A stretch of DNA of 58,056 bases, from the IMG/VR virus record IMGVR_UViG_3300021373_003097, positions 1 to 58,056 of that record. One strand, 5' to 3'. Of the stretch, positions 2,689 through 41,906 are shown in pieces. Source of the DNA: a virus. Its lineage: Duplodnaviria > Caudoviricetes. The notes beneath the pieces are model-generated. The model searched no databases. It was not told the origin of the DNA and worked only from the letters and a program-made list of their open reading frames with translations. The first letter of the stretch is position 1; each line of letters opens with the position of its first letter. The position numbers and the translations under genes were made by a program.

Positions 2689-3749
2689 TGGCTGAAACAC
2701 TCGTTGATCTTGACCGCAATGACTTAATATATAATCAACCTATAGTTGATAATGTACTGCCTCAGTACTTTCAAGATCAGTATCCGCAGTTTGTCAGCCT
2801 TTTGGATAAGTACTACGACTGGCTAAGAACGTATACAGATTCCGACGGCAGGACTCCTATAGGAGAGCTTGAGGATATTGCATACCTTAAGGACAGAGAG
2901 ATCACTCCGGAAAGATTCTTAGACTTTATCTATGATGAGCTTACAGTTGGTTTGTCCTCAGATAACTTTACTCAGTCTAGATTCTTTGCTAAGTTCTTGC
3001 CATTCTTTTATAAGACAAGAGGAACTGCAGTATCTGCTGAAGGCTTCTTAAAGTTCTTAAATGGAGATGACATCGAGCTGTCTTATCCAAAAGATCAGAC
3101 CTTTGTTGTAGGTCAGTCTGAACTTGGCTCTGAATCTTTGAGGTTCATCCAAGATTCTTATTACTATCAGATCTACTCTATCCTAGTCAAGTCTCCAGTT
3201 CCTGTTTCCGAATGGAAAGATCTCTACAAGCAGTACATTCATCCTGCCGGTTGGGAGATATTCTCAGCCCTATTCATTGAAGGTATCGCTAGCAATGTAG
3301 GCATTGTAAATCCAATGCCGACTGCTGTAGAAGAAGCCGCACCTCTCATCGTATCTAGCTTGGCTGAATTTGATGTTCAAGCGATTGGATCTAGATCCAA
3401 CATCACTGCAGTTGATGCTACTATTCAGAAGCGTATGTATGTTGACGGTGAGTACAACTACTACACTGCACAGGAAGAAATTCTGTACGATTCACCGTAC
3501 AATCAGTACAATGATCTCAGTGAGCCTCTTGATCCTAACTCAAGACTGTTCAGCTCAACTGACGATCAGACTTACCTCAACTTTAACTTGGCCAACTCTG
3601 ATGGAACTCACACCATGGATGATTCCGACAGCGCCGGCGGATCGACTATCTTTACTCTTGATAGATTGAATGTCTTTAAGACTATCGACTTCTCCAACAC
3701 TATTGAGACATTCGATGAAGCCAAATTTGATTATTACAGTGACTCTTAA
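2688..3749 (+). CDS. gp7: baseplate wedge protein, gp7-like (short form)
   Basis: LPQYFQDQYPQFVSLLDKYYDWL, FYKTRGT and IQDSYYYQIYS...HPAGW motifs; follows gp6. Confidence 0.7.
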   Translation: MAETLVDLDRNDLIYNQPIVDNVLPQYFQDQYPQFVSLLDKYYDWLRTYTDSDGRTPIGELEDIAYLKDREITPERFLDFIYDELTVGLSSDNFTQSRFFAKFLPFFYKTRGTAVSAEGFLKFLNGDDIELSYPKDQTFVVGQSELGSESLRFIQDSYYYQIYSILVKSPVPVSEWKDLYKQYIHPAGWEIFSALFIEGIASNVGIVNPMPTAVEEAAPLIVSSLAEFDVQAIGSRSNITAVDATIQKRMYVDGEYNYYTAQEEILYDSPYNQYNDLSEPLDPNSRLFSSTDDQTYLNFNLANSDGTHTMDDSDSAGGSTIFTLDRLNVFKTIDFSNTIETFDEAKFDYYSDS

Positions 3750-3762
3750 CTCAACATGTTGT

Positions 3763-3770
3763 TATAAATA
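3763..3770 (+). promoter_or_regulatory. T4-type late promoter
   Basis: Exact TATAAATA in the intergenic gap. Confidence 0.85.
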
Positions 3771-3801
3771 ATTTAAACACTTATAAAAGGTCTCCTCTCA
3801 A

Positions 3802-5583
3802 ATGCCTTTAACATATTTAGATTCAGACTACATTCTTGATCGCGGTCTTATCGCCAACGATAACCTGGGTGATACTTTACGTGAGGCTGCCTTTAAGATC
3901 AATAACAACTTTGAAGATCTGGACTCTGCAATCAACCTAGTGGCAACCACTCCTTTAGGTACCACTTCAAAGTACTCGGTTGCCCTTAATCTTCTTGACT
4001 CTGTAGGTAGAGCCGGAACGCTCCTTACAGATCGTCTGGGTGTAGGTGATCCTGTCTACTACGATACTTCTTCCGGGCTATGGACGGGTGCATATGCAGA
4101 CTCCGAAAGATATGCAACTCACGTTATTGTAAGGTATCGCTCCATCGACAGTGATCAGATCTTTGAGATTGCAAGTACCGGCACGTTTGATCTGGACTCA
4201 GACAGCGCATCTCCTACTCTGACTGCAAACAGAGAGTATTACTTACCTGACTCTGCAGGTGGAGCTCCGTCCACTGTAAAGCCTCTGAGCGGTGATTATC
4301 AAGAGCTCTACTACGCTCTTGACTCCGACACCATCGATGTAAATATTGGCACTCATAGTGAGCGTAGAGTATACTTCGAGCAGGTACCTAGTATTTCTGG
4401 AGGGCAAACACTCCTTTCTGGATTAGATTCAGTGAATGTATCTGATCTTGACGTCTATAAGAACGGTATACTTCTTTCTAAGTCTCTTGACTATGTGGTC
4501 AACAGCGAGACTCAAATCACAATGATTACTTCTCTTGATGATTCAGATATTGTAAGAGTCAGATCAAATACCAGCGAAAGGGTGGCTTCTTCAGGTGGTG
4601 GAGGTGCAACTATCCTTTCTGATGGATCAGATATCGGCGTTTCATATGGAGTAGGCGGCCAGTCAGTTACACTTAGCTTTGACAGTGCAGCGTATGTTAA
4701 AGCTGGGGCAGCTGGTCAGCCAAATGGTGTTGCGCAGCTGAATGCTTCAAGTGTAGTTCCAGTAGCTCAGATTCCTAATCCAGTTCCAAATGCAACTAAT
4801 GCAACCTTTGCGACTAGCGCGACTAACGCTGACAGCGCCAATTTTGCGACGACTGCAGGAACAGCTACAAATGCTACTAACGCTACGAATGCCGACAGCG
4901 CGGGGCAGGCTACAAAGTGGACCATTGCTAGAACCATTACTTTCGGTGGAGACTTAACCGGAAGCTTCAGTATAGATGGTTCTCAAGATGTAACGGCCAG
5001 CGCGACAGTCTCTGGCAGCGGATCGGGTGGATTTGTATCTGGAACTAAGATGCTCTTCCAGCAGGCTGCCGCTCCGACCGGCTGGACTATTGACACTACT
5101 CATAACAACAAGGCACTGAGAATCGTAAATGGAACCGTGACTCCTAGCAGCGGAGGGTCAGTTGCCTTTACTACAGCATTTGCATCTTCTAGAACGGTGT
5201 CCGGATCTGTTGGTGGAACTTCCTTGACAGAGGCTCAACTGCCATCACATGACCACGGAGATGGAAATCTTTCAATCAGCAATCACTCCCATGATATGGA
5301 TGACGCATCGCAGGGTATCACTAACTTCAATGTGTCAGTCAACGCTAATACTATTGGAGTGAACACCACCTCTGGTCCTTTTACCGCACTCTCCGGCATT
5401 TCTTCCGTAAACGTCAATAGCGTAAGCAGGTTAGGGAACAGCATGAATACCGGTAACCAATCTGCGAATATCAGTGGTAATACAGGCAATGCTGGATCCG
5501 GAAACACCCACACTCACTCTTGGTCCGGTAGCGTCAACGTTGGTGTACAGTATGTAGATTTTATCATTTGCACTAAAACTTAA
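3802..5583 (+). CDS. baseplate-attached short tail fibre-like protein
   Basis: gp9/gp10-like N-terminus (ANDNLGDTLREAAFKINNNF), NAT/TNA repeats, collar-like MLFQQAAAPTGWT, and tip motifs LTEAQLPSHDH, NHSH, THTH. Confidence 0.75.
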   Translation: MPLTYLDSDYILDRGLIANDNLGDTLREAAFKINNNFEDLDSAINLVATTPLGTTSKYSVALNLLDSVGRAGTLLTDRLGVGDPVYYDTSSGLWTGAYADSERYATHVIVRYRSIDSDQIFEIASTGTFDLDSDSASPTLTANREYYLPDSAGGAPSTVKPLSGDYQELYYALDSDTIDVNIGTHSERRVYFEQVPSISGGQTLLSGLDSVNVSDLDVYKNGILLSKSLDYVVNSETQITMITSLDDSDIVRVRSNTSERVASSGGGGATILSDGSDIGVSYGVGGQSVTLSFDSAAYVKAGAAGQPNGVAQLNASSVVPVAQIPNPVPNATNATFATSATNADSANFATTAGTATNATNATNADSAGQATKWTIARTITFGGDLTGSFSIDGSQDVTASATVSGSGSGGFVSGTKMLFQQAAAPTGWTIDTTHNNKALRIVNGTVTPSSGGSVAFTTAFASSRTVSGSVGGTSLTEAQLPSHDHGDGNLSISNHSHDMDDASQGITNFNVSVNANTIGVNTTSGPFTALSGISSVNVNSVSRLGNSMNTGNQSANISGNTGNAGSGNTHTHSWSGSVNVGVQYVDFIICTKT

Positions 5584-5596
5584 CATGGAGAATTGA

Positions 5597-5911: not shown

Positions 5912-5916
5912 AACGG

Positions 5917-6102: not shown

Positions 6103-6118
6103 TTAAGGAGAGTAACCA

Positions 6119-6505
6119 ATGGCAGCGCCAAACATTGTCAACGTATCTAGTATCTACGGCAGCACTGTAGGGAAAAATATTAATAATACTGCAGACTCTG
6201 ACGTCACAGTCTTAGAAGGTCGTGCTAATAAAGTCTTAAAGGTGAACATTATTCGTGCAGCCAACGTTCATCCTACTGAGAACGACAGCCTGACGATTAA
6301 CTTTGTTGACTCTGCCTCCAACTCATTTTCTCTCGTGCAAGACATGGAGATTGCAATCCGTCAGGCTTTACCTGCGCTGGAAGGAAGCATCTATCTTTCT
6401 GAAAGTGATAAAATTACAATGAGAAGATTAAACAACGGTAACCTTGCATCTGACTCTGCAACTATTCACGGCATCATTTCATTTGAAGAGCTGGATGACG
6501 CATAA
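6119..6505 (+). CDS. small beta-rich virion adaptor protein
   Basis: RBS AAGGAG; begins MAAPNIVNV; resembles 21092..21442. Confidence 0.65.
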   Translation: MAAPNIVNVSSIYGSTVGKNINNTADSDVTVLEGRANKVLKVNIIRAANVHPTENDSLTINFVDSASNSFSLVQDMEIAIRQALPALEGSIYLSESDKITMRRLNNGNLASDSATIHGIISFEELDDA

Positions 6506-7527: not shown

Positions 7528-7533
7528 TAAATA
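7526..7533 (+). promoter_or_regulatory. late promoter variant
   Basis: AATAAATA (7/8 match) in the intergenic gap before the gp9-like gene. Confidence 0.5.
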
Positions 7534-7561: not shown

Positions 7562-7996
7562 ATGGTTCGACAAATTATTTCAACAGGAACTACAGCAAAT
7601 GACGGAACCGGAGATGACTTAAGATCCGGAGGGATCAAGATCAATTCCAATTTCGAAGAGCTGTACACCTTTATGCCGGGTGGACTTGTTCAGAACATTA
7701 CCGGGGAAGCAGTAGTTTCTCTAGACTCTAGCACATTGTATCTGTTCAACATGGACAGCACTCCTGCCGGAAGCTTTACACTTTCAGATGGAAGCTCAGT
7801 GGGAGAGATTAAGAGAATCATCAATAAGTCTGACTCTGATGTAGATGTCTCTATTACAATCGGTTCAAGTGGACTGGCGTATCCTAAGTCCTCTACCGGT
7901 CTCACCATTACAAATAAGATCGCCTTTGATCTCATGTGGGATGGTACTGAATGGCACTTAGATAGAGACTCAGATTCAAGACTAACGATAACCTAA
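7562..7996 (+). CDS. baseplate fibre-connector protein with gp9-like N-terminus
   Basis: ISTGTTANDGTGDDLRSGGIKINSNFEELY, the gp9/gp10 N-terminal signature. Confidence 0.7.
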   Translation: MVRQIISTGTTANDGTGDDLRSGGIKINSNFEELYTFMPGGLVQNITGEAVVSLDSSTLYLFNMDSTPAGSFTLSDGSSVGEIKRIINKSDSDVDVSITIGSSGLAYPKSSTGLTITNKIAFDLMWDGTEWHLDRDSDSRLTIT

Positions 7997-8008: not shown

Positions 8009-9373
8009 ATGACAGCAATCGCAACACCATCATTTAAAAAAGCAATCATCGAGAATCTGATAACTGATCTAGCAGATTCCGGAGAGACTTACTACTTGGC
8101 TATCGGTAAGTCTGATGCTTGGGATGAGAATGAAACTGTACCGACTACGGTTAATACTAGAGAAGAAGAGCGCAAGTTCAGGTCTAACATGCAGTCGATC
8201 AAGAAGATCTCTGACGGGACCTTCGCTGCAACAAGATACAACTGGTCTTCCGGTACAGTCTATAAAGCATACAGCGATGCAGTAACTCTAGCATCTCTCG
8301 GTGCATACTACGTATTCACTGAATCTCAAAGAGTCTATGTCTGCATGGAGCAGGGCAAAGATGATGCCGGTGTTACTCAGATCTCGTCTGTCAATCCAGA
8401 CACTGTAGGCACCGGTACAGATCCTGTAAGAGCCGCAGACAACTATGTATGGAAGTACCTCTTCTCTATCACTTCTGTAAACACCAACAAGTTCCTTTCG
8501 GCTAACTTCATTCCTGTGAGCTTGATTCTTACTGCCGGTAATCTTATTGAGACTGAGCAGCTGAATGTTCAAAACTCGGCTGCAGCAGGATCTATCATTG
8601 GATACCGAGTAGTTACACCGGGTACCGACTATCCAGATAGCTGCCAGCAAGTCTCTGTTGTAGGTAATGGCTCCGGAGCAGGGGTGACTATTAAGACTCT
8701 TAACGGCGCAGTGGTCAAGGCTACTATTGAAGACTCGACTGATGGCTCTCTCAAGATCGGCTCTGGGTATGACTTTGCTGATGTAGTTATCGGTGACTCC
8801 AACAATGGAGCCGCAGTCATCAGGCCAATCGTTTCTATTAAAGGTCTTGGTGCAGATCCAAGAGAGGATATTAATGCCAATCATATCATGTTCAACTCGC
8901 AGCCTTCAGGCAGCGAATCAGGAGACTTCCTGGTAGGTACAGGGGCTGACTTCCGCCAGGTTGGAATCTTAAGGAATCCAAAGAACTTCAATAATTCTGA
9001 CTTTACTGAAACGACTGGATCTACGTTGAGAAAGCTTCAGTTGAATCCTGCGTCTGTAACCGGAACGTTTCCTGTAGATGCAGTGATCAGAGGGCAGAGC
9101 TCAAGTGCAGCTGCTTATGTAGATAAGTATGATGCTGCAAATAACATCATTTATTTCCACCAGAATGAAGGTACTGGGTTTACTCAATTCTCTAACGGAG
9201 AGGCTATTGTAGACTCAGATAACTCAGCTTCTAACCAGGCAAACCTTTCAAGTGTGGATTCTGATGGTGAAGTCAATGCATTTAGCGGAGACGTTCTCTA
9301 CATTGAAAATAAGAGTCCTGTTTCTAGAGATGCGGCTCAGACAGAAGATATTAAGATAATCTTTAAGCTTTAA
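8009..9373 (+). CDS. gp8: baseplate wedge subunit gp8
   Basis: YYLAIGKSDAW, RYNWSSGTVY, YVWKYLF, FRQVGILRNP and SGDVLYIENKSPVSR...EDIKII motifs. Confidence 0.9.
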   Translation: MTAIATPSFKKAIIENLITDLADSGETYYLAIGKSDAWDENETVPTTVNTREEERKFRSNMQSIKKISDGTFAATRYNWSSGTVYKAYSDAVTLASLGAYYVFTESQRVYVCMEQGKDDAGVTQISSVNPDTVGTGTDPVRAADNYVWKYLFSITSVNTNKFLSANFIPVSLILTAGNLIETEQLNVQNSAAAGSIIGYRVVTPGTDYPDSCQQVSVVGNGSGAGVTIKTLNGAVVKATIEDSTDGSLKIGSGYDFADVVIGDSNNGAAVIRPIVSIKGLGADPREDINANHIMFNSQPSGSESGDFLVGTGADFRQVGILRNPKNFNNSDFTETTGSTLRKLQLNPASVTGTFPVDAVIRGQSSSAAAYVDKYDAANNIIYFHQNEGTGFTQFSNGEAIVDSDNSASNQANLSSVDSDGEVNAFSGDVLYIENKSPVSRDAAQTEDIKIIFKL

Positions 9374-9382
9374 GGTACTCAG

Positions 9383-12300
9383 ATGACTGACTTTACAAAC
9401 ACGACATTTCAAAACACTTATAAGGATGATTTTGTCGATTCTGATAACTATCACCGCATCTTATTCAATTCTGGTAGGACTCTTCAGGCGCGTGAACTTA
9501 CTCAGCTCCAGACAATCATTCAGACCGAAGTGTCCAGGTTCGGGGATCATGTATTTAAAGACGGCTCCTTAGTCATTCCTGGAGGCCTTTCCCTCGATAC
9601 AATTGAGTTTGTAAAGCTTGATGGTAACCCTGACATCTCTGCCTTTGCTGTAGGCGACGTCATCACTGAAGATGTCAGCGGCGTAAAGGCCAAGATCTTA
9701 CGAATCGAGCAGTACGTCAGCTCTTCTGAACCTGCAACCTTTTACATCACGTATACAGATGCAAACGGCCAGGTACCTACTACATCTCCTATCAGGTTCA
9801 CTCCATACAACTCCGGTACGGGTATCGGCGTACTCAGAAAGTCCGGAGCATCTGTAAATGTTCAGGTGACAAACACTACAGAAGATCCTGCTGTAGGAGC
9901 TGGAACGGCCGTATCGGTTGCAACAGGAAGCTTCTATGCTCTTAAGCACTTTGTCCAGTGCAATCCTCAGACAGTCATGGTTGCTAAGTACAGCGCAACT
10001 CCTACAGTCGATATCGGGTTCAAAGTCACTGAAAGCATAGTCACCGCAGAAGATGAGTCTGCACTCTACGATAATCAGAACGTTCTTCCTAATGAGACTG
10101 CACCAGGTGCTGACAGGTACAAGATCAATCTTGAACTCACTACATCTGATGCTATTGACTCAGATGAAAACTTTATCTACTTGAACCGATTAGTAGAAGG
10201 TGAGTTCTTAAAAGAGATCGACAGAAGCACATACAATATTATCGGAGAAGAGTCTGCACTTCGTACATTTGAAGAGTCCGGCGACTATATCGTTGAGAGC
10301 TTAGACTTAGACTTTACTCCTGATTCAGACGCAGGCTTAGTAGCTGAGCTTGGACCAGGCATTGCATACATCAAAGGTTATAGATTTAACCAGCAGTCGA
10401 CTCTTCCTATTAAAGTAAACAAGGCAAGAGACTTCCAAGAGATTGAGAACGATACTGTATCTGCGTTTTTTGGAAACTACCTGAACATCGATGGAACTAC
10501 TATCAAGGGAGTGCCGAACATCGATGTGTTTGAAGTTCAGACTCTTTATGATAACGTTAACTTAGGCGGCGCCAATATCGGTACTGCCAGGGTACGTCAG
10601 GTTGAGCAGAACGGTGCAGACTATAAGTACTACCTGTTTGATGTTAACATTAGTCCTGGATACAAGTTCACTGCAGCTAAGAGTATCGGAACTAGCTCTA
10701 CAAGCTACGGCAACATCATTACAGAGAACAATGCAGCTGTACTTAAAGAGGCTGATGAGAATAACCTGTTCTTTGATCTTCCTAGAATTCGCCCCAAGTC
10801 ATTTGACGATATTCAGTTTGTCGTCCAGCGTAGAATCTCTGGTCTGACAACCGACGGCAGTGGTATTGAAACTATCGATGTAGATGTTTCTGGATCTGAA
10901 GCATTCACTAACACTACTACCTGGATCGCAGCATTTGACTCTGATGGTGGGCACGTTGCACCTGTAATCACCCTTCAGCAGGTAACAAACGCAAATGACC
11001 GAGCACAGCTGGACTTTGGAGCTACATATGCCAACAAGAACTTTGAGGTTCTGGTTGCAGTTCAGAAGTCTTATACTCCGGCAAGTGCAGTTATCAGATC
11101 GAAGACTATCACAAACACTACAGTGACTACTACAATTGATTCTGATGGAAGCGGTATCCTCTATATTCCTCTGTCTAAAGCAGACATTTACAATGTAACT
11201 AGAGTCACTGACTCAGACTCAGATGGAGTAGACCTGTCCGGATTCTTTACACTAGATAATGGACAGAGAGATAACTTCTACGGTGAGGGTAGACTCATCC
11301 TCAACACTGGAGTTACAGCTCCATCCGGAAACGTATTCGTTAGATACGACTACTTTGCACATGGGACAGGCCACTTCTTTGGTCCTACATCCTACACTGG
11401 ATTGAACCTGGACAGTATTCCTACATACACCACAAAGCTCGGTGAAGAAGTTGAATTAAGAAACGTATTAGACTTTAGACCGAGAAAAGGTGACGGAGAC
11501 ACTGAGTACTCCACCGGCACCGCGATTGTCAATGAGATTCCTACAAATACTAGCCTGATCACTTCAGATATCGAGTACTATCTTCCTAGAAGAGACATCT
11601 TGGTTCTTACTGCAAACAATGAAGTCGAGTACATTGAAGGAACCAGCTCTTTTAATCCAGTGTACCCAACTACACCTAATGATGCAATGAAGATCTATGA
11701 GATTGATCTTGAAGCTTACACTGATGATGAAGACGATGTAGACTTCTCTTCCATCGGTAACATCAGGTACACTATGGCAGATATCGCTAGACTTGAAGAC
11801 AGGATTGAAAGGGTAGAAGAGACTACTACTCTCAGCCTTCTTGAGTTAAATGCAGCAAACATTGAAGTTCTCGATGACAGTGGGAACAACCGGTTTAAGA
11901 ACGGGTTCTTTGCTGATAACTTTGAGACTAATGATTTTGTAGATATCAGCACCGGCGAGTTCTTTGCTTCCTTTGATGAAGATCAGGATTTGATCCAGCC
12001 TCTGTTTACGAGTAAGAGTGCAAACCTCTTTGTAGACTCCGGAGCATCTTCTGGAGTGACTGTAGCCGGAGAGCTTGTCATGCTTTCCTATAACGACTCC
12101 GCAGTCATCTCTCAGCTGGTAGCATCTGAGACTGAAAACGTCAATCCATTCGCAATCATCTCTCATGTAGGTTCTATTGAGATGGTGCCTTCGGTTGACA
12201 ACTGGACTGAAGTCAATGAGGTCAGAAACGGCCGGTTGATCGTTCAGCCTAGAAGAGTAGCTCAAAGAGTTCAGTTAAGAAGAAGAGCAATTGCTAGTAT

Positions 12301-14536
12301 TGACTGGCGCAGAACTAGAAATGGAAGGCTTGTTGCTAGAAGACGTATTCGTCGTAGACTTCCATTCTCTATTAGAGCTATCATTTTAAGAAACAGAAGA
12401 AATGCAAGAAGGATTCGTCCTTTACCAGAGGTGAACCAACAGTGGAACGTAACTTCAACTACAAGAAGAACTCAAGCCGGTACCACTATCACCACTGTAA
12501 GAGAAAGAACTGAGCTTTCTGACTTTATCAGACCTAGACTAGTATTCTTCCGTGCACGTGGCCTGCGTCCACGCAGCAGACACTTCGCTTTCTTTGATGG
12601 TACTTCTGTGACCAACTTTGTTCGCCAAGAGTCATCTGTAAACAGAAACTCTATTAGAAGGTTGGTTGGTGGACGCTTCCGCGGATCTATAAATCACCCT
12701 GATGGAGACACTGTACTTACAAGTGACAGCGCAGGAGAACTTATCGGATCGTTCTTTATTCCTGCAAACAGGTTCCAGACCGGCGACAGGGAGTTCAAGC
12801 TGATTGATATCAGTGTGGATGATGAAGATGCTGCTCTTTCTCATGCCAGCAGCACTTACAGTGCCAATGGTACAGTGATTACTAGAGAGATCAGCACTCG
12901 ATTCATTCCTCGTCCAAGACCAAGAAGACGTCGTAGAAGATCCAGAAGAAGAGATCCTCTGGCGCAATCGTTCCAGCTTCCAATGGAAACGGGTGGATTC
13001 ATCAGCAAGATCGACGTATTCTTCAAGACACGTCCGACTGAGAACATTCCGATTAGAATGCAAATTCGTCCTATGATTGCCGGTGTTCCTTCTGAGGAGT
13101 TCCTTGCTGAGACTACAGTGTTTAGAGATGAAGTCCAGATCCCTGGAGATCTGGATGACATGACGACAATCGCATCTAGTCCTACTAGCTTCCCATTCGA
13201 AGAGCCTGTGTACCTGCAGCCCGAAACTGAGTACTGCTTTGTCCTCTTAGCAGATACTAATGATTATAATGTCTACGTTGCAAAGGCAGGCGACTTTGAG
13301 ATCGGTACTACTGAAAGAAGAATCAGGCGTCAACCTACCCTCGGATCTATGTTCTTATCACAGAACTCTAGAACCTGGACACCTGACCAGTCCAGAGACC
13401 TGATGTTTGAGATCTATGCAGCATCCTTTAGCACTGGTACCACTGGCACTGCATACTTAAGAAATGATGACATTGAACCGGATCTTCTTGGTAACAACCC
13501 AATCTTTATCGATTCAGGCGAGACAGATGTATTCATCAGGCACCCTAACAGTGGATTGATGAAAGGTGACACAGTTGTTATCGATGGATTAGATTCCAGC
13601 GGAGACTACGGAGGAATTACTGGGACCTCTATCCTTGGCAACAGGACAGTTCAGCGTGTAGACGGATACGGAATCCTGATCACTGCAGATTCTGCTGCAA
13701 CTTCATCCACCGTCACTGGAGGAGACTCAGTCACTGCTACTCAAAACATGATGTTTGACAGGGTTGTACCTAACATCGAAACGTTTATTCGACCAGAAGT
13801 ATCCTTGACCCTGTCAGCTAACTTTATCAACGGTGTATCGCTGTCTAGGGCAAATGAAGTGACTCAGACAGTAGGATACTCTGCGTCTACTACAAACCAC
13901 ATCTTTGACGGAAACGAGCCTATCATCCTTGAAGCTCCATCGATGGTTGCCGGCAGAACCCTAGAGGTAACTAACTTAGGTGCAAATAGATCTGCCAATA
14001 TAACTGCAAGCTTCAGCACTACTAACAAGTGGCTGTCTCCAGTCATCGATATGCAGACGGCTGAGTTAGGCCTATTCAACAATATCATTGATGACCAAGT
14101 GGACTCAGCGGGGCTGGAAACGGCCCTGACCAATGCTCCAGTTAGCTACGTTGCGGAAACAGATCCTGTTGACGGGACTGCTCTTGCTAAGTATGTTTCT
14201 TCAAACATTAATCTTGAGGAGCCAGCGGTAGGGCTTAAGATCTTCATCGGTGCAAACAGACCTTCTGGCTCTAATATCGATGTTTACTACAAGCTGGTAT
14301 CTGCAGGTGAAGACACTGCTATCGAAGATATCAATTGGGTATACATCAGTGAAGAGAGTAATAATCCTACAGATGATGATCCATCGGTCTACAGAGAGTA
14401 TGAGTACCTGATCGGCGGAAACACTGGAACTCTTGATCCATTCTCTACCTTCAAGATCAAGGTAGTGTTTAGATCTGGAAATACATCTAAGGTCCCAAGA
14501 CTTAGAGATATCAGGGCAATCGCTTTAGGAACATAA
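9383..14536 (+). CDS. large baseplate/virion structural protein (DUF4815/VrlC-like)
   Basis: YKDDF..NYHRILFNSGRTLQARELTQLQT, APGADRYKI, RFKNGFFADNF, NVNPFA and DPLAQSF motifs. Confidence 0.85.
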   Translation: MTDFTNTTFQNTYKDDFVDSDNYHRILFNSGRTLQARELTQLQTIIQTEVSRFGDHVFKDGSLVIPGGLSLDTIEFVKLDGNPDISAFAVGDVITEDVSGVKAKILRIEQYVSSSEPATFYITYTDANGQVPTTSPIRFTPYNSGTGIGVLRKSGASVNVQVTNTTEDPAVGAGTAVSVATGSFYALKHFVQCNPQTVMVAKYSATPTVDIGFKVTESIVTAEDESALYDNQNVLPNETAPGADRYKINLELTTSDAIDSDENFIYLNRLVEGEFLKEIDRSTYNIIGEESALRTFEESGDYIVESLDLDFTPDSDAGLVAELGPGIAYIKGYRFNQQSTLPIKVNKARDFQEIENDTVSAFFGNYLNIDGTTIKGVPNIDVFEVQTLYDNVNLGGANIGTARVRQVEQNGADYKYYLFDVNISPGYKFTAAKSIGTSSTSYGNIITENNAAVLKEADENNLFFDLPRIRPKSFDDIQFVVQRRISGLTTDGSGIETIDVDVSGSEAFTNTTTWIAAFDSDGGHVAPVITLQQVTNANDRAQLDFGATYANKNFEVLVAVQKSYTPASAVIRSKTITNTTVTTTIDSDGSGILYIPLSKADIYNVTRVTDSDSDGVDLSGFFTLDNGQRDNFYGEGRLILNTGVTAPSGNVFVRYDYFAHGTGHFFGPTSYTGLNLDSIPTYTTKLGEEVELRNVLDFRPRKGDGDTEYSTGTAIVNEIPTNTSLITSDIEYYLPRRDILVLTANNEVEYIEGTSSFNPVYPTTPNDAMKIYEIDLEAYTDDEDDVDFSSIGNIRYTMADIARLEDRIERVEETTTLSLLELNAANIEVLDDSGNNRFKNGFFADNFETNDFVDISTGEFFASFDEDQDLIQPLFTSKSANLFVDSGASSGVTVAGELVMLSYNDSAVISQLVASETENVNPFAIISHVGSIEMVPSVDNWTEVNEVRNGRLIVQPRRVAQRVQLRRRAIASIDWRRTRNGRLVARRRIRRRLPFSIRAIILRNRRNARRIRPLPEVNQQWNVTSTTRRTQAGTTITTVRERTELSDFIRPRLVFFRARGLRPRSRHFAFFDGTSVTNFVRQESSVNRNSIRRLVGGRFRGSINHPDGDTVLTSDSAGELIGSFFIPANRFQTGDREFKLIDISVDDEDAALSHASSTYSANGTVITREISTRFIPRPRPRRRRRRSRRRDPLAQSFQLPMETGGFISKIDVFFKTRPTENIPIRMQIRPMIAGVPSEEFLAETTVFRDEVQIPGDLDDMTTIASSPTSFPFEEPVYLQPETEYCFVLLADTNDYNVYVAKAGDFEIGTTERRIRRQPTLGSMFLSQNSRTWTPDQSRDLMFEIYAASFSTGTTGTAYLRNDDIEPDLLGNNPIFIDSGETDVFIRHPNSGLMKGDTVVIDGLDSSGDYGGITGTSILGNRTVQRVDGYGILITADSAATSSTVTGGDSVTATQNMMFDRVVPNIETFIRPEVSLTLSANFINGVSLSRANEVTQTVGYSASTTNHIFDGNEPIILEAPSMVAGRTLEVTNLGANRSANITASFSTTNKWLSPVIDMQTAELGLFNNIIDDQVDSAGLETALTNAPVSYVAETDPVDGTALAKYVSSNINLEEPAVGLKIFIGANRPSGSNIDVYYKLVSAGEDTAIEDINWVYISEESNNPTDDDPSVYREYEYLIGGNTGTLDPFSTFKIKVVFRSGNTSKVPRLRDIRAIALGT

Positions 14537-31903: not shown

Positions 31904-33829
31904 TTGGCTGATAACTATCCATTCGACTCAGATAACGTACCGTACAGCGCAGTCTTTAACCAAGACTATACTGCTGACAGCGCTATAGCTGTTTCTACAC
32001 TATTTTCTACGACTACACCAGTGTCCTTGATCACTATTATTGGTGGAGCAGGTGGTACTTCTGGCGGGGTTGGCGGTACAGGTGGGTCAGTTACAACCTT
32101 AGATACTACCTATAGTGCTTCTCGGGGTTCTTACTCTGGCGGAGATGGTGGAGCTGGTGGCGGTGCTCTTGGTAATGGAGCCGGAGGTGGTGGAGCTGCA
32201 GGATACTCTGGTGCAGGTGGAGATGCTGGATCCGCTGGAACAGGTGGAGCTGGAGGAGGCGGTGGTGCTTCTACTAATCAGCTGTTACTTGGCGGTGGCG
32301 GTGTAGGTCTATTCGGTGAAGGAACATCAGGTGCTGCTGGTACTGATTCTACTGCAGCGGGCGGTGGTTCTTCCTTTACTACGATTCATGGTGATCCATA
32401 CTTAGGTAACGTTACATTACTTCTAACTGGCGATAGCACGATAACCCCAGTTAACTTTGGAAGGTCAGACGGATTCTCTGCTACATATCATAACGCCTAC
32501 CCCGATTCAGCTGGTGCCTTTACAACTGGTAAGTATGGTAGCGCATTCTCTTTCAATGGTGAAGATCAATATATTTCTTTAACCGGTGGGGATTTGTCTG
32601 GCGGTGACTGGACCATTGAGATGTGGGTTAATTATGATAGCATGACTCAATTCTCAGGGCCAATTGCTACTGATATGGATAAGGTACTACCAGCGGGTAA
32701 TACAGCAGGGGAATTTGATTTCCATATTCGAACCACAACCGCGCCTCACCGTATGTCTTTTTTCGTTAGAAATGATGGCAGTTCCCCGACAACTTTTGAT
32801 ATTGAAAATGATAGCGTAGCAATTACTGCTGGAACCTGGCACCATGTCGCAGCTTCATTTGTATCCTCTACTAATACTATATATGTAGGTGTTGACGGTA
32901 CAGTGTCCTCGAGTACGAACGCTGCATTTGCAAGTATTTCATTAGGTGCTGAAGATGCGCTTCAGATTGGCAAAAATAGAACTAACAACCAATTTTTTAA
33001 TGGTCAGATCGATGATATACGGTTAACCAAAGGTGTAGCACGATATACCTCTAGCTATACGGTACCCGCAGCAGCGCATTCTTCAGCACCTGGGGCTAGT
33101 GGAACGGATGGGTTTATTGATAGTGATGGTGCGCTGCTTAATTTTTCTTCAGCCCCCACCGGCACAATCAATGTTATTGACTATTCTACTGCTCCTGTAA
33201 CCAGTGGATTGATCATACATCTTGATGCGGGAGTAACTTCATCATACCCTGGTTCTGGATCAACATGGTACGACATTACTGCAAACAACAATGATTTTAC
33301 TCTTACTAACAGTCCGACTTATTCAAGCGCCAACGGGGGCAAGTTTCAGTTTAATGGTACTAATCAGTATGCCACCGGAGGGCCAAACCTAAGTACGTCT
33401 AACTGTACAACTATTGCTATTCAAAGGTATGCTACTAATAACAATAGCGCTAGAGGTAGAGTTACTGCCGGTAATGCTAACAACTGGCTCTTGGGCATAT
33501 GGGGTAATAATACATCAGTTTACTACGCTAATGGATGGCTTACTCCTACCAATACCGGAACTGATACTGACTGGCACATTCATGCTGGTACTGAAAACTA
33601 CAGTGGCGATTCTAGAGTTTTGTATGATAACAATGCTGTGGTTTCCGGGCAGACTGCTAGCGGTGGTTCTCAGGGACCAAATGGGTTTTCCATAGGTAGA
33701 TGGGGGGCTGGAAGTAGTGAGTATTCAGATTGTGAAGTAGCAGTGCTTCTAGTTTATAACAGGGTGCTTAGTACAACCGAGTTAACTACTATATTCGATT
33801 TCTATAAAAGTAGATTTGGAATTTCTTAA
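31904..33829 (+). CDS. virion protein with a partial Gly-rich domain and two LamG/concanavalin A-like domains (TTG start)
   Basis: DWTIEMWV...WHHVA...FNGQIDDIRLTKGVARY; second domain GLIIHLDAG..SYPGSGSTWYD...VYNRVLS. Confidence 0.8.
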   Translation: MADNYPFDSDNVPYSAVFNQDYTADSAIAVSTLFSTTTPVSLITIIGGAGGTSGGVGGTGGSVTTLDTTYSASRGSYSGGDGGAGGGALGNGAGGGGAAGYSGAGGDAGSAGTGGAGGGGGASTNQLLLGGGGVGLFGEGTSGAAGTDSTAAGGGSSFTTIHGDPYLGNVTLLLTGDSTITPVNFGRSDGFSATYHNAYPDSAGAFTTGKYGSAFSFNGEDQYISLTGGDLSGGDWTIEMWVNYDSMTQFSGPIATDMDKVLPAGNTAGEFDFHIRTTTAPHRMSFFVRNDGSSPTTFDIENDSVAITAGTWHHVAASFVSSTNTIYVGVDGTVSSSTNAAFASISLGAEDALQIGKNRTNNQFFNGQIDDIRLTKGVARYTSSYTVPAAAHSSAPGASGTDGFIDSDGALLNFSSAPTGTINVIDYSTAPVTSGLIIHLDAGVTSSYPGSGSTWYDITANNNDFTLTNSPTYSSANGGKFQFNGTNQYATGGPNLSTSNCTTIAIQRYATNNNSARGRVTAGNANNWLLGIWGNNTSVYYANGWLTPTNTGTDTDWHIHAGTENYSGDSRVLYDNNAVVSGQTASGGSQGPNGFSIGRWGAGSSEYSDCEVAVLLVYNRVLSTTELTTIFDFYKSRFGIS

Positions 33830-34876: not shown

Positions 34877-35974
34877 TTGGCTTTAAAGTTTCCAGATTCA
34901 GCAGATTCAGCCGACTTAGCGGCAGCAGGCTACAGCCAGGTTATTATTCTGGGTGGTGGGGACTCGACTGCTACAACCTGGACTATTCCTGAAGGCGTAG
35001 ACTCGTTTAGCATTATGGCTATTGGAGCAGGTGGAGCTGCAGGTTACTCTAATTCTACTAGTGCAGGAGGCGGTGGAGGAGGCGGAGGTCTTGCCTACCT
35101 GAACAATATCGCAGTCACACAGGGTGATCAAGAAATCATCTCTATTACTGTAGGTGGTGGGCAGCTAGGTGTGGGAGCCAATTCTGATGGCGGTGATGCT
35201 ACTGACCTAACTGTTACTATGAATCTCACTACTGCCAATCCAGCATTAAACTTATCCGGATATAACATAAATCCATATGGCCAGCAAGAGTTTTTAGATG
35301 CAGATTCAGATGCAAAGGCAATCATGTATATTGGAGCAGCTAGACTCGCTCCTTCGGCATCTAATCTTTTTGATTCATATCCAACTCTCAACCTGATATT
35401 CGATGATAGTGCTTCGTCTACAGCAGATCAGTTTGTATATGTTCAGCCAACTGGATCCTTTGGCACTGCATATCCATTCTCCGTGGGAGTAGATGGAGCG
35501 CAGACGCTATTTGATATTGCAAATGAAGGTGCATTCTCAAGAATTCAATCTTTAGCTGAACCAGATCCAAATACAACAAACAGGTGGGGATATAACCCAG
35601 CGACTTTTAACTACGCTTCTGATCCTAGTACGTACCTTTTCAAGAGAACAGACACCTTGGCTCATCTAGGGACTGACAGTGACCTGTATATTCCTCAAAG
35701 CATTCTTGATGCTGGATTTGCAACTTTAGATGATCAGCCAACAACAGTTTTAGGTACAATCGATTCATTTGATGTTGGAGGAGGAGCCTTTACTCTGTTC
35801 AGCATTTCTAGTGCAATCCAGTCTATTCAGATTGGAAATTTACCAGGACAATCTCCTTATGTTGATAGCGGTGGCACAATCATCATCAGTGCTGTACAAG
35901 ATCCATCGGATTATCAAGGATACGGCCCACCTGACTTAAGACAGATTCTAATTGAAAAAAATCTTACTCCGTAG
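34877..35974 (+). CDS. virion protein carrying the N-terminal third of a Gly-rich domain plus an unknown domain (TTG start)
   Basis: WTIPEGVDSFSIMAIGAGG...GGGGGGLAYLNNIAVTQGD; RBS AAGGA. Confidence 0.7.
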   Translation: MALKFPDSADSADLAAAGYSQVIILGGGDSTATTWTIPEGVDSFSIMAIGAGGAAGYSNSTSAGGGGGGGGLAYLNNIAVTQGDQEIISITVGGGQLGVGANSDGGDATDLTVTMNLTTANPALNLSGYNINPYGQQEFLDADSDAKAIMYIGAARLAPSASNLFDSYPTLNLIFDDSASSTADQFVYVQPTGSFGTAYPFSVGVDGAQTLFDIANEGAFSRIQSLAEPDPNTTNRWGYNPATFNYASDPSTYLFKRTDTLAHLGTDSDLYIPQSILDAGFATLDDQPTTVLGTIDSFDVGGGAFTLFSISSAIQSIQIGNLPGQSPYVDSGGTIIISAVQDPSDYQGYGPPDLRQILIEKNLTP

Positions 35975-36010: not shown

Positions 36011-36667
36011 ATGGCTTTGACTTTAGACACTTTTAACACAAATGCATATGTAGCTTCCGCTACTACTCTTGCAAATAGAGATGAATATCATTATTTGGTA
36101 AGAGCTGTGCCTGATGAAAATTTTAAGAAAACCATCAAGAGAATATTTAACAAGCCTTTATCTACTAGAGGAGGTGCACTTGGAGATTCTGGAGAGACAT
36201 GGCACATTGTAGTTGCGGCTGACCCAAATCTTGACTCTTCAATAGAAAGTACAGAAGCCTTTAAAGTGTGGTCTTCGCCTAGACTTGTAGTTAAGGAAGG
36301 TATATATGTAGAATCAGATGGTTCCAATCCTATGGACCTCGGCCCAGATGTAGACGAGTTTTTAACTAGAGATCTAGCAGTTGGCCATTCTGACTCCATG
36401 AATTCTGGACATATCTTAGATATAAAAGAAGTATTTGGAGATTCTGCATGGCGAGCACATCCGGATCTGTCTCACTTCTTTGATGCCTCTGGATTCTATA
36501 GATATGATGATACAGCATCAGAGTGGATTGCCGGCTTAATTGGCTTAGAAGAAGTGGATTCTTCCTCTATTTTAAGCATGGTTTCTTCTAGAGAACTTTT
36601 ATTAGGAGAGAATGCTCCTAGTTGGGTAACTGAAGCTTCTAGTGATAGTGCCGCTGATAGCGCGTAG
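36011..36667 (+). CDS. hypothetical late protein
   Basis: Own late promoter and GAGGAG RBS; acidic and DS-rich. Confidence 0.7.
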   Translation: MALTLDTFNTNAYVASATTLANRDEYHYLVRAVPDENFKKTIKRIFNKPLSTRGGALGDSGETWHIVVAADPNLDSSIESTEAFKVWSSPRLVVKEGIYVESDGSNPMDLGPDVDEFLTRDLAVGHSDSMNSGHILDIKEVFGDSAWRAHPDLSHFFDASGFYRYDDTASEWIAGLIGLEEVDSSSILSMVSSRELLLGENAPSWVTEASSDSAADSA

Positions 36668-37461: not shown

Positions 37462-37465
37462 GATC

Positions 37466-39228: not shown

Positions 39229-39605
39229 GCAACATAGTACCTAAGAAAGATATGCCGGAAAGCGTGCATTCTAGTTATGATGAAGACTTAGATCTCATTC
39301 GCTCTACTCTTCGAAGTCTTTTGATCCAAGGTGAAGAAGGCCTTCAACTTGCACAGGCCGTTGCTGACGAGATGCAGCATCCTCGGGCCATTGAAGTCTT
39401 GAGTGGTATGATTAAGCAGCAGTCAGACAATGCTCACGCTCTATTAAAGATGCATAAGAATAATCAAGAAATCAACGTCACTCAGGCTAAAGGAAAGCCT
39501 GAAGAAAACAAGGCTCTTACACAGAATGTATTTGTAGGCTCAACAGCAGAACTCCAGAAGATGTTGAGAGGTGAACCGGAGATAATCAACGGCGAAGAGT
39601 TATAA
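39225..39605 (+). CDS. gp16: terminase small subunit gp16
   Basis: HPRAIEV and NVFVGSTAELQKML. Confidence 0.9.
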   Translation: MSNIVPKKDMPESVHSSYDEDLDLIRSTLRSLLIQGEEGLQLAQAVADEMQHPRAIEVLSGMIKQQSDNAHALLKMHKNNQEINVTQAKGKPEENKALTQNVFVGSTAELQKMLRGEPEIINGEEL

Positions 39606-39608
39606 ATA
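39601..39608 (+). promoter_or_regulatory. T4-type late promoter
   Basis: Exact TATAAATA overlapping the gp16 stop codon. Confidence 0.85.
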
Positions 39609-39641
39609 AAAACAAATTAGTTTTAACGGAAGAAGCTTAAA

Positions 39642-41906
39642 ATGGCAATAGTTCTACGCTCTTTAAAAGGATCTGCTCTAACATTTAGTCAGTTAGACAA
39701 CAACTTCTCTGAACTTGATTCGAGAATCTTAGATTCTAGCGAAGTGTCCGATATCATTGACTCTGACTACATTCAATCAAGACAGCTTCTCACTACTCCA
39801 GCTGAAGGTCTAGATTCAGACGCAGTCATTGATCTGGTAGATTCAGATTATATTGAAGCTAGATTTGGAGACACCTTCGATTCTGACTATGTTAAGGCAA
39901 GAATGCTTTCATTGGATGGGGGTGTCTTAAATCAGAAGTACGGAGAGTACATTCATGATCCTAATCCGATAGTCTTCAGCGTAGTAGTTTCATCTAAGAC
40001 TTCAGCTCACAGATATCAAGGTACAGGCTCATCTAACGGATATGTGATTGAAGGTACTGAAGGACCGTTCATTGAACTCGTACCAGGTAACACTTATCAG
40101 TTCGATCAGTCAGATGCCTCCAACAGCTTCCATCCAATTAAGTTCTATCTTGAGCCAGACCAGACTACACTGTATGAGACTGGAGTAACATATGCAGGTA
40201 CTCCTGGTCAAGCCGGTGGGAGAACTCAGATCGTAGTAAGTGACAGCACTCCAGGTACTCTGTATTACATGTGTGAGAATCATAGCTACATGGGTAACGC
40301 TGTACATACAATGAATAACGTTGCAGGATTTGATGGAGCTTTCTCATCCTTAACAGGAACTCCTACTACACTTTCTGGTTATGGTATCACGGATGCTCAA
40401 GCAACCTTAGTATCAGGTACAAACATTAAGACGATCAATGGGTCATCACTGGTCGGATCTGGTGATTTAATCGTAAGCGGAGGTACTGCATACGGAGATG
40501 CAAACGTAGATTCTAACCTGAATACTAATACTGCAACTTCTGGTCAGGTTCTTTCTTGGACCGGCACTGACTACGATTGGGTCGCTCAGACGGGCGGATC
40601 AGGTTCTTCTGTTACAGTAAGTCACATTGTAGACATGAGTCTCCTTGACTCTGTAGGCAGAGCAGGTACACTTCTCTCTGCAGCTCTCGGTGTAGGTGAT
40701 GGTGTCTACTATGACTCCGACGCTGGAGTATGGACAGGGGCCTATAAAGATTCAGCTCATGTAGCTTCTCATGTTATTGTAAGTTACAATACATCTGCCA
40801 GTGAATTTAAGATCGCTCAGACAGGTATCTTTACACTCGACTCTGATGGTGGAGCTCCTACTCTTAAAAAGAACGCGTACTTCTTCTTAGCTGACTCTGC
40901 AGGACTGACTCCAGTAACAACCTCCCCTGACTCTGGAATCTACCAGTCGCTGTTCTATACACTTGATTCTAATATCATTGATGTAAACGTTAGTGAAGCT
41001 CAGAAGTCAGTGATAGCGACAGGTGGCGGAGGCGGAGGCGGTACTTCATATACAGATGCAAATTTAGATTCGCATTTAAATACAAACACTGCCACTTCAA
41101 ACCAAATACTTGCTTGGAACGGTAGTGATTATGATTGGCGTGCTCAGAGAAGTGTCTACAACTCTATAGAGAGCCTAGACTCCCCTAGTGGATCTCAAAC
41201 CGGAATACATGCAGTAAACACTACTAGCGGCACAATAACGTTCGTTGGTACTGGCGGAATTTCAGTAGATGTTAGTGGAGGCTCTGGGTCTTCAGTAAGC
41301 GACAGCGCATATATTGTAATTGACGGAACAGGTGTAGGCGGCGGAGGATCCGGCGACATCACTGCTGTAAACATCACAGCTGGCACGGGTCTGACTGGAA
41401 CAGTGAGCACAGCATCTGGCGACCACACTCAAACGCTAGCTCTTGACTCAGCGGGTATTGGAGCAGGCACCTACGGCAGCACGAGCAACACGACTAAGAT
41501 CGACACTATCACCGTCGACGCTTATGGTCGAGTAACGAATGTAGCGACTGGAGGTATCAGCGCAACTGCATCTGCAGGAGGATCAAGCACTCAAGTTCAA
41601 TACAATAGCGGTGGAGCTTTAGCGGGTGATGCCGGAATGGTTTATAATGCTACTACTAATACTCTTACTGTAGAGAACCTTGAAGTTACTGGATCTGGAT
41701 CTACAAATACAATTTCTTCTTCTGGAGACGTTGTCTTAGATGCAGGAAACAGAGTTAGAGTAGATGGCACGGTACCATTTAGACTACCTAATGTTACGAC
41801 TACTCAGCAGAACGCGATTGGAGCTGCAGCGGGTGATCTGGTGTTCAACACTTCAACTGGTAAAGTAACAGTCTATACCGGTTCAGCTTGGGTGGCACTG
41901 CACTAA
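39642..41906 (+). CDS. mosaic virion fibre protein with a cupredoxin-like module
   Basis: LRSLKGSALTFSQLDNNF; YQFDQSDASN..HP...LYYMCENHSYMG; PTTLSGYGITDA; ITVDAYGRVT; QVQYNSGG. Confidence 0.75.
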   Translation: MAIVLRSLKGSALTFSQLDNNFSELDSRILDSSEVSDIIDSDYIQSRQLLTTPAEGLDSDAVIDLVDSDYIEARFGDTFDSDYVKARMLSLDGGVLNQKYGEYIHDPNPIVFSVVVSSKTSAHRYQGTGSSNGYVIEGTEGPFIELVPGNTYQFDQSDASNSFHPIKFYLEPDQTTLYETGVTYAGTPGQAGGRTQIVVSDSTPGTLYYMCENHSYMGNAVHTMNNVAGFDGAFSSLTGTPTTLSGYGITDAQATLVSGTNIKTINGSSLVGSGDLIVSGGTAYGDANVDSNLNTNTATSGQVLSWTGTDYDWVAQTGGSGSSVTVSHIVDMSLLDSVGRAGTLLSAALGVGDGVYYDSDAGVWTGAYKDSAHVASHVIVSYNTSASEFKIAQTGIFTLDSDGGAPTLKKNAYFFLADSAGLTPVTTSPDSGIYQSLFYTLDSNIIDVNVSEAQKSVIATGGGGGGGTSYTDANLDSHLNTNTATSNQILAWNGSDYDWRAQRSVYNSIESLDSPSGSQTGIHAVNTTSGTITFVGTGGISVDVSGGSGSSVSDSAYIVIDGTGVGGGGSGDITAVNITAGTGLTGTVSTASGDHTQTLALDSAGIGAGTYGSTSNTTKIDTITVDAYGRVTNVATGGISATASAGGSSTQVQYNSGGALAGDAGMVYNATTNTLTVENLEVTGSGSTNTISSSGDVVLDAGNRVRVDGTVPFRLPNVTTTQQNAIGAAAGDLVFNTSTGKVTVYTGSAWVALH
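40491..40589 (+). repeat. 33-aa intragenic direct repeat, copy 1 (copy 2 at 41049..41147)
   Basis: YGDANVDSNLNTNTATSGQVLSWTGTDYDWVAQ versus YTDANLDSHLNTNTATSNQILAWNGSDYDWRAQ. Confidence 0.9.

Follow-up and report, generated by a model that had tools for sequence, protein, structure and literature searches.

The dipeptide Asp-Ser (DS) is in large excess in the outer tail proteins encoded by the virus record IMGVR_UViG_3300021373_003097, and the described systems with which this excess can be compared include several that glycosylate proteins. The stretch analysed (58,056 bases, hereafter the window) is the whole record; every gene lies on the + strand, and the structural module of a T4-like myophage is encoded (PHROGs, Pfam). 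Virions of tailed phages are assembled in the cytoplasm. In mycobacteriophages, phage-encoded glycosyltransferases modify capsid and tail-tube proteins; their genes lie beside the structural genes and no short sequon is known to be involved. The enzymes SdgB and SdgA carry out O-GlcNAcylation of staphylococcal adhesins with Ser-Asp repeats, a cytoplasmic modification of many Asp-flanked serines per protein. The general O-glycosylation sequon of the Bacteroidota is D-(S/T)-(A/I/L/V/M/T) (PMC12871550; PMC8550257), and the system modifies non-cytoplasmic proteins after the glycan has been flipped to the periplasm. Either Ser or Thr can be the acceptor, and the residues favoured behind it are L, I, V, T, A, S and M (PMC12871550). 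The autotransporter heptosyltransferases (BAHT: TibC and AAH, with the targets AIDA-I and TibA) densely O-glycosylate Ser, not Thr, in beta-helical adhesins (PMC4358343). An original prediction, made from the window alone, held that DS saturates unrelated outer virion proteins and is a candidate sequon, linked to that of the Bacteroidota, for a surface modification, perhaps by an enzyme encoded outside the window.

Expected dipeptide counts were calculated from each protein's own composition, and 1000 shuffles per protein were made with the composition kept. The distal-tail set comprised 21 proteins (3802-41906; 11380 amino acids (aa)), with the neck proteins and gp16 excluded. In this set DS occurred 245 times against 96.6 expected (observed/expected ratio (O/E) 2.54, z 15), the biggest deviation among all dipeptides, and in the remaining 23 proteins of the window it occurred 34 times against 39.9. 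SD (105 against 96.6) and ES (24 against 38.5) showed no such excess, and DT, with 45 against 94.0 (0.48), was the most depleted of all dipeptides; it was still at 0.59 of expectation when DS was set aside. In this comparison, which had been proposed together with the prediction, DS alone was in excess, and composition does not explain it. The hand counts behind the prediction were all reproduced: 33 DS and 7 SD in the 659-aa fibre (15512-17491), 4 DS in the protein at 6119, 5 at 7562, 4 at 21092 and 7 at 36011, and none in gp25 (362-811), gp19 (49926), gp3 (55830), gp16 (39225), gp21 (52566) or gp22 (53223), with one in gp17. The "dozens" reported for the 2027-aa fibre (21435-27518) proved to be 67.

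Seven proteins, named here by their start positions, deviated from their shuffles at p<=0.002 (3802, 15512, 17589, 21435, 27563, 34877 and 39642) and seven more at p 0.008-0.032 (6119, 7562, 9383, 21092, 31136, 31904 and 36011). Outside the distal-tail set none of the 23 proteins reached p<0.05 (the nearest, at 2688, had p=0.076). The excess is real and confined to distal-tail proteins. The claim that it saturates the outer virion stands for these 14 proteins (p<=0.032) and not for some exposed-looking ones. It was lacking from the C-terminal ends of the fibres at 3802 and 39642 and from three whole proteins: the subtilase, with 2 DS where 2.6 were expected, the FG-GAP protein (3 for 5.8) and an 852-aa protein (6 for 4.6).

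The residue following DS was restricted. Relative to expectation only Ala (3.9x) and Asp (2.2x) were enriched, and Leu (0.37x), Ile (0.7x) and Thr (0.5x) were scarce. DSA occurred 79 times against 8.2 expected (9.7x) and DSD, the second commonest form, 44 times against 8.5 (5.2x). A hydrophobic residue directly preceded the Asp at about 50% of the sites, compared with a background of about 30%, and stood at +4 in 35-56%. The core motif can be written phi-D-S-(A/D), in which phi is a hydrophobic residue. Spacings between DS peaked at 10 (19 cases), 15 (10 cases) and 5 residues; no more than two DS were adjacent (DSDS), and long Ser-Asp arrays were absent from the listed sites.

The pattern resembles each of the described systems in part. 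Mycobacteriophage glycosylation shares with the reading proposed below a phage-encoded sugar coat on virion proteins, but the window marks distal-tail proteins, uses a strict tripeptide and has no transferase in the structural module. The targets of SdgB/SdgA also carry many Asp-flanked serines per protein, and DSD is common in the window; they are, however, long unbroken SD arrays, whereas in the window SD is at expectation and the scattered sites mostly take the form DSA. With the Bacteroidota system the window shares an Asp directly before the hydroxyl acceptor, a small or aliphatic residue behind the acceptor and many sites per protein. That system is periplasmic, acts on exported targets only, accepts Thr, prefers L, I or V after the acceptor and is a host system of another phylum. 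In the window, by contrast, the mark is restricted to Ser followed by Ala or Asp, in virion proteins assembled in the cytoplasm, and the hint at the host points to Alphaproteobacteria: PstS of a partial relative (G001) was nearest, among named cellular proteins, to metagenome-assembled genomes (MAGs) of Alphaproteobacteria, with 63-64% identity. This one auxiliary gene of a relative hints weakly at such a host, and not at one of the Bacteroidota. The joint use of Ser and Thr with an aliphatic residue after the acceptor, typical of the Bacteroidota, was not found (DT 45 against 94.0; L 0.37x, I 0.7x and T 0.5x after DS), and on all these grounds the proposed link to their sequon is not supported. 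The BAHT enzymes are similar in that many serines, and not threonines, are modified in repeat-built beta-helical proteins; they differ in that no D-S rule appears in the available part of PMC4358343 and in that bacterial adhesins, not phage fibres, are the targets.

All 12 possible Asp-Ser codon pairs were in use, and AGY codons made up 38.8% of the Ser codons after Asp, compared with 33.3% elsewhere. Because AGY is not avoided after Asp, the signal acts on the protein, as the prediction had concluded from the use of both TCN and AGY. The preference for GAC before Ser was a next-nucleotide context effect, also seen before Phe and Tyr, and with both results a DNA-level cause was ruled out. A repeat artefact was ruled out as well: outside strictly 5-periodic tracts DS still occurred 227 times against 91.1 expected, and BLAST among the window proteins found only three shared modules, the proteins being mostly unrelated. 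The excess also persisted in 19 proteins when the two repeat-rich fibres were left aside. In the genes from 3802 to 41906 the choice of Asp codon followed the next base in general, GAC making up 59% before T, 45% before A, 25% before C and 23% before G. GANTC was found 352 times in the whole window, against about 217 by a rough base-frequency estimate, partly from GAY-TCN Asp-Ser codon pairs.

Related phages were compared in the same way. In the fibre and outer-baseplate proteins of the comparators DS was found 80 times against 72.1 expected (C48C1), 38 against 50.0 (P-SSM2), 43 against 42.0 (Melnitz) and 12 against 15.0 (Mosig), and cyanophage S-SCSM2R had no excess either. The IMG/VR relative L011 had 112 DS against 49.6 and 28 DT against 55.5. 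Metagenomic homologues of the 659-aa fibre (46-53% BLASTP identity) had DS at an O/E of 3.8-4.8 and 0-2 DT against 6.5-9 expected, and about 14 of the 33 DS positions of this fibre were invariant among 11 homologues at 56-62% identity. In another partial relative (G002) the outer baseplate open reading frames (ORFs) held 47 DS against 25.3, and those of the inner baseplate and hub 9 against 14.2. A survey by TerL took in 26 IMG/VR loci whose non-core ORFs ahead of TerL amount to 400 aa or more. In fibre-like ORFs upstream of the neck genes, the O/E was at least 2 in 7 of the 16 loci with a TerL identity of at least 80% (sum 277 against 144.4) and in 0 of the 10 loci with a TerL near 70% (66 against 92.4). 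The trait is patchy among close relatives (7/16) and therefore travels with particular fibre modules.

An exhaustive HMMER search with the 1166-aa fibre (17589-21089) retrieved 2998 relatives. Their best 150 cluster representatives had a median O/E of 0.91 for DS, and 3 had an O/E of at least 2, the top one being a relative 77% identical to the window protein. Opposite the 24 DS of the window protein, homologues carried DS at 61 of 784 aligned pair-sites and otherwise DA, TS, NS, NT, DQ and many other pairs; over 148 high-scoring segment pairs, 723 DS were found in the window protein only and 203 in the outgroup only. A module of the 2027-aa fibre (residues ~553-830) is common to fibre proteins of marine podophages and cyanophages, and here the window's DS stood opposite TA, DA, DG and others in CRP-9, HTVC142P and SS120-1. 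When the window was aligned with cultured phages, distal proteins had 83 window-only and 35 outgroup-only DS, and core proteins 37 and 42. This alignment of homologues had been suggested with the prediction, and it showed varied polar pairs in other phages at the DS positions. The family of the fibre at 3802 was bimodal over 120 homologues, the first 18 members having an O/E of 2.4-2.9 (7 members) or 0-0.5 (11 members); what they have in common is a C-terminal domain without DS. Within the clade, DS dipeptides were better conserved than the mean in three orthologue sets (0.52 vs 0.30, 0.48 vs 0.27 and 0.75 vs 0.49).

Richness in DS is no general property of fibrous phage proteins, as the comparator phages and the fibre-family representatives showed. 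Judged from these sequence comparisons, the excess is specific to the clade and to the fibre module and is not imposed by the folds; DS arose in the clade at positions where other phages vary, was retained within it, and stands in several structural contexts. In the non-virion proteins of two partial clade relatives DS was found 48 times against 76.5 expected (SD 83 times); the corresponding counts were 78 against 86.5 in C48C1 and 23 against 31.2 (0.74) in Mosig. Other dipeptide biases were also seen. A tail fibre of Pelagibacter phage HTVC142P (L093:758-4003) had the opposite bias, with 15 SD and 2 DS against 8.6 expected, and in the fibre set of Phage C48C1 the dipeptides GN, NY and TR were strong outliers (z 9.5-11.6), which we would guess come from an internal repeat in its giant 3232-aa protein.

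The structural contexts of DS were derived from a profile and from models. The family profile of the 659-aa fibre matched pentapeptide-repeat proteins in the PDB (E values: 4yfo 5.8e-10, 4yc5 1e-9, 2j8k 8.6e-7, 6omx 0.0066, 2o6w 0.44); the single 659-aa sequence gave no match to Pfam Pentapeptide (PF00805) at E<=0.01. Read off the profile alignments, the register is A(i-2), x(i-1), I(i), D(i+1), S(i+2), giving a repeat A-x-(I/F/V)-D-S in which the i-1 position varies (Y, H, D, T). Canonical pentapeptide repeats follow A(D/N)LXX, in which i-1 is occupied by D or N. The fibre family resembles proteins of the Rfr fold, a right-handed quadrilateral beta-helix (Np275/Np276, 2j8k; Alr5209, 6omx; Rfr, 2o6w), in its profile match, in its 5-residue periodicity and in having a small and an aliphatic residue at the two inward-pointing positions of that fold; it differs in placing D-S at i+1/i+2 and in its variable i-1. 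The ESM Atlas neighbours of residues 340-560 were beta-solenoid families, all with weak scores. Since the AlphaFold2 (AF2) monomer of this fibre is poor (mean predicted local distance difference test (pLDDT) 60.5, and <50 over the tract, ~residues 340-530), its placing of DS between short strands is only a hint.

The model of the 1166-aa fibre was good (mean pLDDT 83.8). Six of its 24 DS are helix N-caps, with Asp as the N-cap and Ser at N1, one has Asp as the first helical residue, three are helix ends (all D-S-G), three lie inside helices, six in loops and five in or beside strands. N-cap positions make up 3.3% of the residues in this model, and DS is the commonest Ncap-N1 pair (6 of 38 helices); at these N-cap sites outgroups hold the usual cap residues (D, N, T, S). 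A helix N-cap with a hydrophobic staple has Asp at the N-cap and hydrophobic residues at N' and N4; the pooled DS sites have such residues in about 50% at -1 and 35-56% at +4. In the models and the profile DS is thus often a cap or a corner. The alternative of turn capping, raised with the prediction, therefore gained the six N-caps and the corner pair of the pentapeptide-like tract, and it leaves aside the 18 of 24 sites that are not N-caps. Local structure does not explain these 18 sites or the uniform choice of DS by the clade.

We favour, with a probability of roughly 0.5, the reading that DS-(A/D) is a linear tag read in trans by a putative factor, all kinds of reader taken together. It is favoured because DS is restricted to the distal tail (245 against 96.6, and 34 against 39.9 elsewhere), because the fold does not demand it (3 of 150 representatives; five comparators without excess) and because it is kept within the clade. 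Order and identity matter (SD is not enriched, DT is depleted, DSA reaches 9.7x and DSD 5.2x), DS is found in several structural contexts in the 1166-aa model, and the non-virion proteins of the clade are somewhat DS-poor; these points favour the tag as well. So does the precedent of TibC and the BAHT family for dense, Ser-only O-glycosylation of beta-helical adhesins (PMC4358343). Selection has written phi-D-S-(A/D) into the outer baseplate and fibre proteins of one marine T4-like phage clade, and a trans-acting factor made during infection would read the tag.

The most likely reader would be a cytoplasmic enzyme that modifies the Ser hydroxyl of the tag, with glycosylation as the leading candidate, a choice that we make tentatively; a fibre-specific assembly chaperone, or another reader, is a distinctly less probable one. 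We infer all three of the reader's existence, its activity and its encoding outside the 58-kb contig. Put together with some more reserve, the clade, probably infecting Alphaproteobacteria, would run a cytoplasmic, sequon-directed Ser modification whose enzyme has its gene elsewhere in the genome, adducts such as a sugar at hundreds of phi-D-S-(A/D) sites would coat the host-contacting end of the virion, and the non-virion proteins of the phage would tend to avoid the tag. The surface decoration by an enzyme from outside the window that had been predicted is supported indirectly in so far as DS is a selected, protein-level, clade-specific, conserved and Ser-specific mark in varied contexts, and loses its tie to the Bacteroidota.

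Several observations weigh against the trans-read tag. Among the window proteins scanned (37 with PHROGs and 25 with Pfam) there was no transferase, kinase or sugar-nucleotide enzyme, no search having been aimed at GT9-type heptosyltransferases; the search for such genes, proposed with the prediction, covered the window alone. Of five partial relatives (22-40% complete) one, G002, carries a GT2 gene, beside a radical SAM/SPASM protein; apart from four near-identical contigs, only four GenBank records of other kinds had this GT2. S-SCSM2R has KdsA, KdsB and a glycosyltransferase and yet no DS excess, by which an association of the CMP-Kdo genes with the tag was rejected in one direction, and C48C1 and Mosig carry sugar genes without the tag. 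Going by gene content, the sugar genes of the relatives do not track the tag. The trait is also patchy, the remaining 9 of the 16 close relatives having DS-poor proteins in the same slot. The depletion in non-virion proteins is no more than suggestive (z about -1.8 against the comparators by our own estimate, with Mosig also at 0.74). Finally, many DS sites fit a cap or corner geometry, half of them follow a hydrophobic residue, and two DS lie inside beta-strands in the 1166-aa model.

Further enzyme genes were seen in the partial relatives. G001 encodes KdsA and KdsB (above the NCBIfam cut-offs), an epimerase/dehydratase, a carbamoyltransferase, an FkbM methyltransferase and 2-oxoglutarate (2OG) oxygenases. 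Its KdsA and KdsB equivalogs, for CMP-Kdo synthesis, lie at L100:2807-5186 with a 200-aa ORF between them that had no match in Pfam, NCBIfam, the PDB or GenBank phages; a 290-aa ORF beside the Kdo genes, considered as a transferase candidate, was found to be a primase homologue. KdsA is present in only 14 GenBank phage records and, among GenBank phages, is absent from four comparators. A 372-aa phage protein of G001 (L100:1261-2379) matched the Druantia DruA domain (PF14236, E 5e-12). In G002 (L098:2627-3593 and 9038-10694) the radical SAM/SPASM protein adjoins both the GT2 gene and an IMPDH/GMP-reductase-like gene, and a protein with a TnsA-like endonuclease domain and a weak sulfotransferase-like ORF lie beside tail genes. 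PF01973 was matched in 0 of the 5 partial relatives. PF06002 likewise gave 0 of 5, a search made uninformative by a control without a match in any genome. In Mosig (L007:1-19200) a long run of enzyme genes stands directly upstream of the tail-fibre genes, annotated as two Asp_Arg_Hydrox proteins, a carbamoyltransferase, aminotransferases, MoaA-like proteins and nitroreductases.

Of the other explanations, the main rival is a structural habit without any reader. DS would close turns, the Asp capping free backbone NH groups after a buried residue and the Ser adding a hydrogen bond; such turns would be helix N-caps, helix ends (D-S-G) and the corners of pentapeptide-like beta-solenoids (A-x-I-D-S), and the habit would have spread among the fibre modules of the clade by duplication and recombination. 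This accounts for the hydrophobic residue at -1 (about 50% against about 30%), the small residue at +2, the hydrophobic residue at +4 and the spacing peaks at 10, 15 and 5, and it fits the profile match to pentapeptide-repeat structures, the weakly scoring beta-solenoid neighbours, the share of N-caps among the modelled DS, the usual cap residues of the outgroups at those sites, the roughly 14 of 33 invariant positions and the way in which the trait follows fibre modules. The same folds are, however, built without DS in 147 of the 150 family representatives and in the five comparator phages, and 18 of the 24 modelled sites are not N-caps. Thr could fill most caps, yet DT is depleted, and a joint shift to one dipeptide in many unrelated proteins, all of them distal-tail proteins, is not expected from local structure alone. 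We regard the habit as possible, though less probable than the tag. A cation-binding surface, an alternative also named with the prediction, appears unlikely. Here Asp and neighbouring Ser hydroxyls at solenoid corners and loops would bind Ca2+ or Mg2+ from seawater and so stiffen the fibres or bridge them to anionic sugars of the host envelope. The fibres contain about 10-11% Asp, the excess is found only in host-contacting parts, and a spacing of 5 or 10 residues would stack Asp along a solenoid; but a demand for charge or ligands needs neither a D-then-S order (SD is at expectation) nor Ala or Asp at +2, no known Ca-binding family was matched by Pfam in the 25 window proteins, and marine relatives live in the same ions without the tag.

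It is very improbable that the virion uses the general O-glycosylation of a Bacteroidota host at D-(S/T)-(A/I/L/V/M/T). By our own tally the next residue is A, I, L, V, M or T in 128 of the 245 DS sites, 79 of these being DSA; set against this are the non-cytoplasmic targets of that system, modified after the glycan reaches the periplasm, the cytoplasmic assembly of tailed-phage virions, DT at 0.48 of expectation, the scarcity of L, I and T and the enrichment of D after the Ser, the relatedness of the G001 PstS to Alphaproteobacteria, and the hosts of the named relatives, which are cyanobacteria, SAR11 and OM43. It is hardly credible that the DS excess is an artefact, whether its source be the amino-acid composition, a handful of tandem repeats or a signal in the DNA such as GANTC sites. 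Asp and Ser are abundant in the fibres, DSAYINNL-type tracts are common to the 2027-aa and the 659-aa fibres, and GANTC exceeds its rough estimate; the expectations were, however, computed per protein with shuffles that preserve composition, SD is at expectation, the excess holds outside periodic tracts and in 19 proteins besides the two repeat-rich fibres, and AGY codons, which create no GANTC site, are not avoided after Asp.

The DS-bearing proteins lie mostly in the outer baseplate and the fibre block. In the baseplate-region fibre (593 aa, 3802-5583) all 14 DS (5.9 expected) lie in the N-terminal 365 aa and none in the collar-like C-terminal domain. A 128-aa protein (6119-6505; 4 against 1.0, p=0.008) is followed by a 144-aa protein with a gp9/gp10-like N-terminus (7562-7996; 5 against 1.9) and by the gp8-like baseplate wedge protein (8009-9373; 6 against 3.4), whose clade orthologues have 6-9 against about 3. 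The excess is weak in the 1717-aa DUF4815 protein (9383-14536; 17 against 10.6). The 659-aa fibre, with 33 DS against 6.6 and 0 DT against 7.4, contains the pentapeptide-like A-x-I-D-S tract at about residues 340-560, and the 1166-aa fibre, with 24 DS (the six N-caps included) against 10.2, combines a helical region with a pectate-lyase-like beta-helix. Between the latter and the 2027-aa fibre (67 DS against 24.2, 9 DT against 25.6) is a 116-aa protein (21092-21442; 4 against 1.0, p=0.013). Further downstream are a 324-aa protein (27563-28537; 10 against 3.9, p=0.002), a 641-aa Laminin_G_3 protein (31904-33829; 9 against 4.6), a 365-aa protein with a Gly_rich_2 N-terminus (34877-35974; 10 against 3.1), a 218-aa protein directly before the neck genes (36011-36667; 7 against 2.7) and, between gp16 and gp17, a 754-aa fibre (39642-41906; 19 against 7.1) with N-terminal repeats L-D-S-D-Y-I-x-x-R.

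Gene order in the window starts with the baseplate wedge genes (gp25, gp6, gp7-like and gp8-like), followed by the giant DUF4815 protein and the fibre-gene block; the rest of the module comprises the neck (gp13-15), gp16, gp17, sheath, tube, portal, prohead protease, scaffold and major head protein. No tRNA genes were found in the window. Among named phages, Phage C48C1 (Kyanoviridae, host not given) is the closest, its TerL being 70% identical, and cyanomyophages come next at about 46%. The genes for gp16 (TerS) and gp17 (TerL) are separated by four genes (39642-46235), which encode the DS-rich 754-aa fibre, the subtilase (Peptidase_S8, mycosin-like), a 137-aa collagen-like protein and the FG-GAP repeat protein of 780 aa. 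The 754-aa fibre had just one homologue among the ORFs of 80 TerL-related IMG/VR loci, and its N-terminal 110 aa gave no match as a tblastn query. A DUF6065 protein inside the fibre block (31136-31900) has GenBank-phage homologues mostly in haloarchaeal myoviruses (HF1, HF2, HRTV and HJTV types, ~32% identity) and a few more in cyanophages; neither the PDB nor the ESM Atlas gave a lead for it. The 852-aa protein had no homologue among GenBank phages. A PDB chain with the name 'Dec protein' in its deposition (6e3c, E 0.0014) resembles, in its C-terminal part, residues 1346-1394 of the 2027-aa fibre.

In pelagimyophages and cyanomyophages the host recognition cluster (HRC) is a hypervariable block of fibre genes in the structural module, between the VrlC gene and gp14 (PMC7029224). 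The fibre block of the window, taken from the DUF4815 protein to the neck genes (~14.5-36.7 kb), looks equivalent, with the DUF4815 protein assumed to correspond to VrlC. It differs in that it contains no recognisable transferase, whereas glycosyltransferases lie inside the HRCs of pelagimyophages and were proposed to alter the host surface, and in that a DS tag is not described for the HRC in the available text of PMC7029224.

Should the tag prove to be an acceptor site, tailed phages would have their first short sequon for a modification of the virion, and abundant marine myophages would coat the host-contacting tail end. Such a coat would bear on host range, on resistance to enzymes of hosts and grazers and on the reading of fibre sequences in metagenomes, where the tag is easily scored from sequence. 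If DS is only a structural habit, it would still be a marker of a lineage of fibre modules and of a non-canonical pentapeptide-like solenoid.

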